Assembly (NCBI RefSeq): GCF_003334255.1 | Contig: NZ_QOWU01000007.1 | DNA from: Escherichia coli | Lineage (GTDB): Bacteria > Pseudomonadota > Gammaproteobacteria > Enterobacterales > Enterobacteriaceae | Length of the DNA stretch: 64,000 bases | Strand: one strand, 5' to 3' | Shown: positions 55,693 through 55,900 of the stretch, piece after piece | Numbering within the stretch: the first letter of the stretch is position 1 | Layout: every line of letters starts with the position of its first letter | Notes under the pieces: generated by a model | What the model saw: only the letters and a program-made list of their open reading frames with translations | Database searches by the model: none | Told to the model about the DNA's origin: nothing | Program-made: the position numbers and the translations under genes

Positions 55693-55803
55693 AAAAGCGG
55701 ATCCTGGAGATCCGCAAAAGTTCACGTTGGCTTTAGTTATTCGAGTTGAGAAACTCTCGAAACGGGCAGTGACTTCAAGGGTTAAAAGAGGTGCCGCTCC
55801 GTT
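55693..55803 (-). ncRNA. oxyS: OxyS oxidative-stress sRNA, divergent from oxyR
   Basis: Reverse complement reads AAACGGAGCGGCACCUCUUUUAACCCUUGAAGUCACUGCCCGUUUCGAGAGUUUCUCAACUCGAAUAACUAAAGCCAACGUGAACUUUUGCGGAUCUCCAGGAUCCGCUUUUUUU, matching OxyS as I recall it, including its terminator. Confidence 0.85.
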
Positions 55804-55831
55804 TGTGTGAGCAATTATCAGTCAGAATGCT

Positions 55832-55890
55832 TGATAGGGATAATCGTTCATTGCTATTCTACCTATCGCCATGAACTATCGTGGCGATGG
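55832..55890. promoter_or_regulatory. OxyR binding site and overlapping oxyS/oxyR divergent promoters
   Basis: gatagggataatcgttcattgctattctacctatcgccatgaactatcgtgg between the oxyS 5' end and the oxyR start, with ATAG-type repeats typical of OxyR sites. Confidence 0.65.
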
Positions 55891-55900
55891 AGGATGGATA

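Follow-up and report, generated by a model that had tools for sequence, protein, structure and literature searches.

The argH-oxyR interval of an Escherichia coli chromosomal window matches the canonical divergent oxyS-oxyR locus and carries a rare base at OxyS nucleotide 1

The interval 55693–55900 of the DNA studied here corresponds, with a probability that we put at about 96%, to the canonical divergent oxyS-oxyR locus of E. coli. It begins within the U tract of the OxyS terminator, stops one base short of the oxyR ATG, and contains both the gene for the small RNA and the control region, with argH on one side and oxyR on the other. The window, which is the whole stretch of 64,000 nucleotides that was analyzed, is a piece of the E. 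coli chromosome that reaches from kdgT at one end to murI at the other. Its sequence runs collinear with that of K-12 MG1655 at 99.97% identity, and the two differ by approximately 12 point differences and by one 123-bp repeat unit that is absent from the ppc-argE spacer of the window. Around the locus itself (55620–55920), 300 of 301 aligned bases are the same as in K-12. The locus is already known, is described in textbooks, and is among the most thoroughly studied bacterial small-RNA loci; the functions that we attribute to OxyS and OxyR in the window are inferred from K-12 by sequence identity.

The flanking genes were identified from their protein families. argH (54261–55634, plus strand) matches NF008964 (864 bits) and TIGR00838, is convergent with oxyS, and is followed by a terminator at 55657–55679 that was found by a terminator scan. 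oxyR (55901–56818, plus strand) encodes the peroxide-sensing LysR-type regulator and matches the equivalog model NF008361 with 632.9 bits against a cut-off of 329; a check of its sequence showed that both redox cysteines, C199 and C208, are present. A plus-strand open reading frame of 87 residues with a GTG start (55547–55810) was considered as a coding alternative and rejected: its start lies within argH, in a different frame, and it crosses the argH terminator.

The earlier note on this DNA had placed OxyS on the minus strand between argH and oxyR and had proposed an Rfam search as a check. In that search, model RF00035 matches 55696–55805 on the minus strand over its full length (model positions 1–110 of 110) with 133.8 bits, well above the gathering score of 75, and an E value of 1.1e-27; it is the top match in the Rfam scan of the whole window and lies 59 bits over the gathering threshold. 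The curated record of K-12 MG1655 has the ncRNA oxyS (b4458) at the homologous position. The gene as delimited here (55689–55805, minus strand) comprises OxyS of approximately 110 nucleotides and its U tail, with 116 of 117 bases as in K-12. It shares with the K-12 RNA (b4458, RF00035) the place between argH and oxyR, the strand, the length, the terminator, and the complete sequence of nucleotides 2–117, but the K-12 RNA has a G at nucleotide 1, whereas the RNA of the window has a C and lacks the G1-C47 pair.

The 5' end of OxyS was set at 55805 in accordance with the K-12 annotation and the numbering used in the literature. With +1 at this position, the sequences AUAACUA and AACUAAA fall at nucleotides 66–72 and 68–74 and the C76/C77 pair of bases falls in its place, all as published. 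AUAACUA and AACUAAA are the OxyS fragments seen bound to Hfq, the distal face of which binds nucleotides 65–74 of the OxyS linker (PMC4344510); the nusG site comprises nucleotides 52–66, and the mepS site includes C76/C77 (PMC10798246). In the window, the nusG site, the A-rich linker that contains the published distal-face site (nucleotides 65–74; 55732–55741, minus strand), and the adjoining C76/C77 of the published mepS-pairing site (55729–55730, minus strand) are all the same as in K-12. The predicted minimum free energy (MFE) fold has three hairpins and an open linker, with an energy of −29.6 kcal/mol and a z score of −2.3 relative to shuffled sequences, and the linker is predicted to be single-stranded with a probability of 0.87. 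The terminator hairpin and U tract that had been claimed for OxyS were both found by the terminator scan. The hairpin, stem-loop c, is a Rho-independent terminator located at 55697–55715 on the minus strand by both the scan and the fold; its sequence, GCGGATCTCCAGGATCCGC (also GCGGAUCUCCAGGAUCCGC), read from 55715 to 55697, forms eight pairs, of which five are G-C, around a loop of three bases. It is followed by the U tract TTTTTTTT, with eight U residues (55689–55696, minus strand), which doubles as the 3' poly-U of an Hfq-dependent small RNA.

An OxyR binding site in the intergenic region, with roles in the autoregulation of oxyR and the activation of oxyS, had also been proposed. Every position in the window (63,964 in all) was scored against the 37-bp OxyR consensus ATAGnTnnnAnCTAT-N7-ATAGnTnnnAnCTAT, which has 20 specified positions and is said to originate from Toledano et al. 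in 1994. The top score in the 64-kb window, 16 of 20, is that of a site at 55843–55879 with the arrangement ATCG-N7-CTAT-N7-ATCG-N7-CTAT, which we regard as the putative operator common to oxyS and oxyR. First-order Markov simulations give a chance expectation of 0.01 sites with 16 of 20 matches per window, and the score of the operator was not attained in any of 5000 local shuffles. The site is identical to the oxyR-oxyS operator of K-12, with four tetranucleotide elements at a center spacing of 11 bp and, as in K-12, ATCG instead of ATAG in two of the elements. The published OxyR footprints (Toledano, 1994) reportedly used K-12 DNA, and the sequence of the window is identical to that DNA. 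Coordinates for the OxyR footprints on oxyRS and katG were not found in PMC6389858 or PMC7617757; what was found is the consensus, which PMC10580950 quotes for oxyRS, katG, and ahpC.

The promoter hexamers described here, as well as the start sites of oxyR and katG, are predictions. The oxyR promoter (55831–55860, plus strand) was predicted by a promoter scan and consists of a −35 hexamer TTGATA (55831–55836), an 18-bp spacer, and an extended −10 element TGcTATTCT. Its predicted −10 hexamer (55855–55860) and start (approximately 55867) fall inside the operator. A simple sigma-70 scan of the minus strand found no oxyS promoter; a weak −35 is typical of activator-dependent promoters, and the result is read as the one expected from such a hexamer and not as a sign that the promoter is absent. 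Read from the sequence, the oxyS promoter appears to have a −10 hexamer GATAAT (55814–55819, minus strand), the ATAAT core of which is invariant across 47 species, and, 17 bp from it, a weak −35 hexamer TATCCC with two of six matches (55837–55842, minus strand), which is adjacent to the predicted −35 of oxyR. The operator touches the predicted oxyS −35 and spans −38 to −74 from the oxyS +1, the position expected for a LysR-type activator. The distance between the 5' end of OxyS at 55805 and the oxyR ATG at 55901 is 95 nucleotides, and the two genes are divergent. The placement of the operator thus fits the activation of oxyS and the autorepression of oxyR by occlusion, as the earlier note had suggested. 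In published work, the oxyR and oxyS promoters overlap, and OxyS homologues all lie 5' of oxyR (PMC5793797).

Conservation of the region in enterobacteria had been named as a further check, and it was found. Loci were retrieved with a 20-mer from the OxyS linker that is present in 62 species-representative genomes, so that 63 sequences were compared, namely 62 Enterobacteriaceae loci and the window. The genera with the 20-mer include Escherichia, Salmonella, Citrobacter, Enterobacter, Klebsiella, Raoultella, and Kosakonia, as well as Leclercia, Lelliottia, Pluralibacter, Trabulsiella, Franconibacter, and Shimwellia. In 60 of the 63 sequences oxyR is divergent and is 83–106 nucleotides from the 5' end of OxyS, and the other three loci end at a contig edge; an OxyR motif with 15–17 of 20 matches is found in all compared loci for which upstream sequence is available. 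That homologues of OxyS are positioned 5' of oxyR is a conservation pattern already published (PMC5793797). In an alignment of 47 species there is hardly any variation in the block containing the promoters and operator, much variation with many insertions and deletions in the 5' domain of the RNA, and conservation of the linker and terminator. The invariance of the linker is in part a product of the retrieval, which used the linker 20-mer.

For 26 OxyS homologues aligned with MAFFT, RNAalifold yielded no more than 11 pairs, at −3.2 kcal/mol. This poor consensus results from misalignment of the indel-rich 5' domain, and covariation counting was therefore dropped and each homologue was folded alone. 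Folded in this way, 39 of 47 homologues are predicted to have three hairpins and 8 of 47 two hairpins, and the mean predicted probability that the linker is unpaired is 0.84. The sequences of stem a vary among the homologues and include GAAACGG/CCGUUUC, AUGAGGAA/UUCCUCAU, and GGCAGG/CCUGCC. The oxyS genes of Klebsiella, Raoultella, Enterobacter, Leclercia, and related genera have the same synteny, promoter, operator, linker, and terminator as that of the window but have different or shorter 5' domains, and the eight homologues with two hairpins lack hairpin b.

Against the identification of a small RNA gene it could be argued that the conserved block consists of nothing more than the promoter and operator of oxyR and that the RNA match on the minus strand arose by chance or is what remains of a decayed gene. 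In ordinary genomes PGAP leaves the space between argH and oxyR without annotation, and the plain MAFFT alignment yields almost no consensus structure in RNAalifold, as would be expected from such a view. However, the covariance-model score exceeds the gathering threshold by the margin given above, the single mismatch in 117 nucleotides is to an experimentally characterized RNA, conservation in 47 species runs 117 nucleotides past the promoter to a proper terminator, and the homologues, when folded singly, keep the hairpin-linker-terminator plan. OxyS has been detected in K-12 by Northern blot (Altuvia et al., 1997, as cited in PMC5793797). We consider the absence of an expressed RNA gene to be extremely improbable, and no result that contradicts the canonical oxyS-oxyR locus was found in this analysis.

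The second question raised by the comparison with K-12 concerns position 55805, which is the only difference from K-12 in this region, sits on the annotated +1 of OxyS, and had not been mentioned in the earlier note. The RNA (minus strand) has C at nucleotide 1 in place of the G of K-12, the plus strand having G in place of C. The 61-mer with the variant base at its center (55775–55835) has an exact match in 3 of 5426 complete E. coli genomes, G1/2, G6/7, and G8, and the corresponding K-12 61-mer is matched exactly in 5070 of the 5426; among complete genomes, the C allele is seen only in this human-gut lineage. The record of G1/2 gives as its source the faeces of a healthy person in Germany. 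The window differs from G1/2 by four SNPs outside the repeat array, together with a difference in repeat number, and from K-12 by 12; because it is nearer to G1/2 than to K-12, the C allele is interpreted as a natural lineage marker and not as an error. Separately, the oxyS 61-mer also occurs in two plasmid records of the E. coli complete-genome collection. The substitution removes the closing pair of stem a, G1-C47, and cmscan flags a non-canonical C-C pair between positions 1 and 47; the predicted MFE changes from −32.9 kcal/mol for K-12 to −29.6 kcal/mol for the variant.

These features would be compatible with a locus that is the same as in K-12 except that the G-to-C change at nucleotide 1 makes it a natural hypomorph or gives an altered isoform. 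A purine at +1 is preferred by RNA polymerase, and with a C at this position initiation could shift to one of the neighboring A residues, at −1 or +2, or could lose efficiency. The substitution falls exactly on the annotated +1; the allele is rare, its three genomes all belonging to one German faecal lineage; C is found at this column in none of 46 other species; and the predicted structure is weaker by 3.3 kcal/mol, with a shift in the MFE register of stem a in addition to the lost terminal pair. On the other hand, position 1 is not fixed as G, being T in many Enterobacter and Klebsiella types and A in one species. In the species with T or A, stem a begins further in, which indicates that the terminal pair has been dispensable in evolution. 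The published pairing and Hfq sites of OxyS are all at nucleotide 52 or later and are unchanged, the operator and the oxyS −10 are unaffected by the substitution, and in 64 kb the lineage is separated from K-12 by only approximately 12 further sites, a pattern that resembles ordinary drift. We consider the hypomorph or altered isoform to be unlikely. A more specific version, in which the change is a natural regulatory variant that shifts the 5' end or lowers the peroxide-induced output of OxyS, with altered OxyS-mediated cell-cycle arrest and mutation avoidance in the lineage, appears slightly less likely again, and the probability of a functional effect of the variant is judged to be low. Since many genera have T or A in the corresponding column and the published sites are unchanged, the variant is probably neutral, and C at nucleotide 1 is most likely a near-neutral lineage marker at an otherwise canonical locus. 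With this base, nevertheless, the strain is not guaranteed to produce OxyS with exactly the 5' end, or at the level, found in K-12.

Several observations concern the annotation of oxyS in other genomes. The PGAP-annotated E. coli genomes G1/2 and MS6192 are without an oxyS feature between argH (or an MFS transporter gene) and oxyR, and oxyS was found to be annotated only in the curated K-12 record, as compared with the PGAP-annotated genomes. Syntenic oxyS genes that score below the Rfam gathering threshold of 75 bits occur in Leclercia (71.8), Pluralibacter (62.9), Franconibacter (49), Entomohabitans (47), Klebsiella oxytoca (47), and Shimwellia (35.1 bits); these six orthologues retain the promoter, linker, and terminator, and their 5' domains are diverged or shortened. 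Because PGAP leaves oxyS out and the Rfam gathering threshold misses many Enterobacteriaceae orthologues, pipelines under-report oxyS. Of 5426 complete E. coli genomes, 1872 do not have argH next to oxyS. In MS6192, the example that was examined, the insertion between the two consists of manD (D-mannonate dehydratase) and a gene for an MFS transporter (locus L067, 4397–6961), and sequence similarity to the window stops precisely where the U tract of OxyS ends (approximately 55688).

The claim that katG, a primary OxyR target, lies approximately 22 kb upstream at 31124–33304 with a matching promoter-proximal motif is correct. The gene (plus strand) encodes catalase-peroxidase HPI, matches TIGR00198 with 1398.7 bits, and is 22.4 kb from oxyS. 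An OxyR-type motif with 14 of 20 matches is indeed present at 31028–31064, 60–96 nucleotides before the ATG, and is the third-best match to the OxyR consensus in the window, but it is statistically weak when taken alone: it is only marginally above chance, with a P value of 0.04 from local shuffles and 0.75 sites with at least this score expected per window. The katG upstream region is the same as in K-12 at 335 of 335 bases. From our own reading of the sequence, a weak −35 (31065–31070, plus strand) that adjoins the motif and a −10 hexamer TATCGT (31088–31093, plus strand) separated from it by a 17-bp spacer are predicted; a simple sigma-70 scan found no katG promoter. The arrangement, in which the motif adjoins a weak predicted −35 at 17 bp from the −10, is the same as that at oxyS, but the site differs from that of oxyRS in having a weaker motif and no divergent regulator gene. 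According to what is reported of the 1994 study of Toledano, the katG site is bound by oxidized OxyR only and the oxyRS site by both redox forms. Regulation of both oxyRS and katG by OxyR is published for K-12 (PMC10580950, PMC5793797).

The second-best match to the OxyR consensus in the window is located elsewhere, at 29854–29890, with 15 of 20 matches (ATAGATGTGCACAACACAACATATAACTACAAGCGAT). It is 15–51 nucleotides upstream of the metF start codon, adjoins the MetJ-box region, and has the same sequence in K-12. The chance expectation is approximately 0.057 sites of this kind per window, and local shuffles give a P value of 0.003. No relevant report of a connection between OxyR and metF emerged from a literature search. 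The motif could be a chance match or an unrecognized OxyR site.

The remaining Rfam matches above gathering in the window are a cobalamin riboswitch in the btuB leader (60795–60984), a ClpQY promoter element of hslVU (19574–19631), the L31 leader of rpmE (24243–24295), naRNA4 (799–876), and two ES036 REP-type elements (5881–5922 and 25275–25316), all of which are expected in this K-12-like region. Relative to K-12 there is a one-base deletion at 42383 inside pflD, which is annotated in G1/2 as a frameshifted pseudogene, and the tandem repeat array in the ppc-argE spacer (50634–51106) has one 123-bp unit fewer than in K-12 MG1655.

The anatomy of the locus and the literature on K-12 (PMC5793797, PMC10798246, PMC4344510), applied by sequence identity, suggest how the locus would operate. 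Tetramers of OxyR would occupy the 37-bp operator at 55843–55879 in both redox states and, by covering the −10 and the start of oxyR, would repress that gene. Oxidation of Cys199 and Cys208 by H2O2 would allow OxyR bound against the weak oxyS −35 to recruit RNA polymerase, and oxyS would be transcribed leftward from approximately 55805 to give an RNA of approximately 110 nucleotides. The RNA would consist of a long 5' hairpin (a), a small hairpin (b), the A-rich linker, and the terminator hairpin (c) with its U tail, and would bind Hfq through the linker, on the distal face, and through the U tail. Together with Hfq, OxyS would pair with fhlA, nusG, mepS, and other mRNAs and repress them, and it would lower the translation of rpoS by titrating Hfq; these effects would slow the cell cycle and limit mutagenesis under peroxide stress. 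katG, 22 kb away, would belong to the same OxyR regulon and be co-induced through its own OxyR site.

The identification of the oxyS-oxyR locus in the window brings no new biology, and the locus serves as a positive control that was recognized from raw sequence to within a few bases. The variant at OxyS nucleotide 1 provides a cheap and testable natural allele for the study of start-site choice at an activator-dependent promoter.
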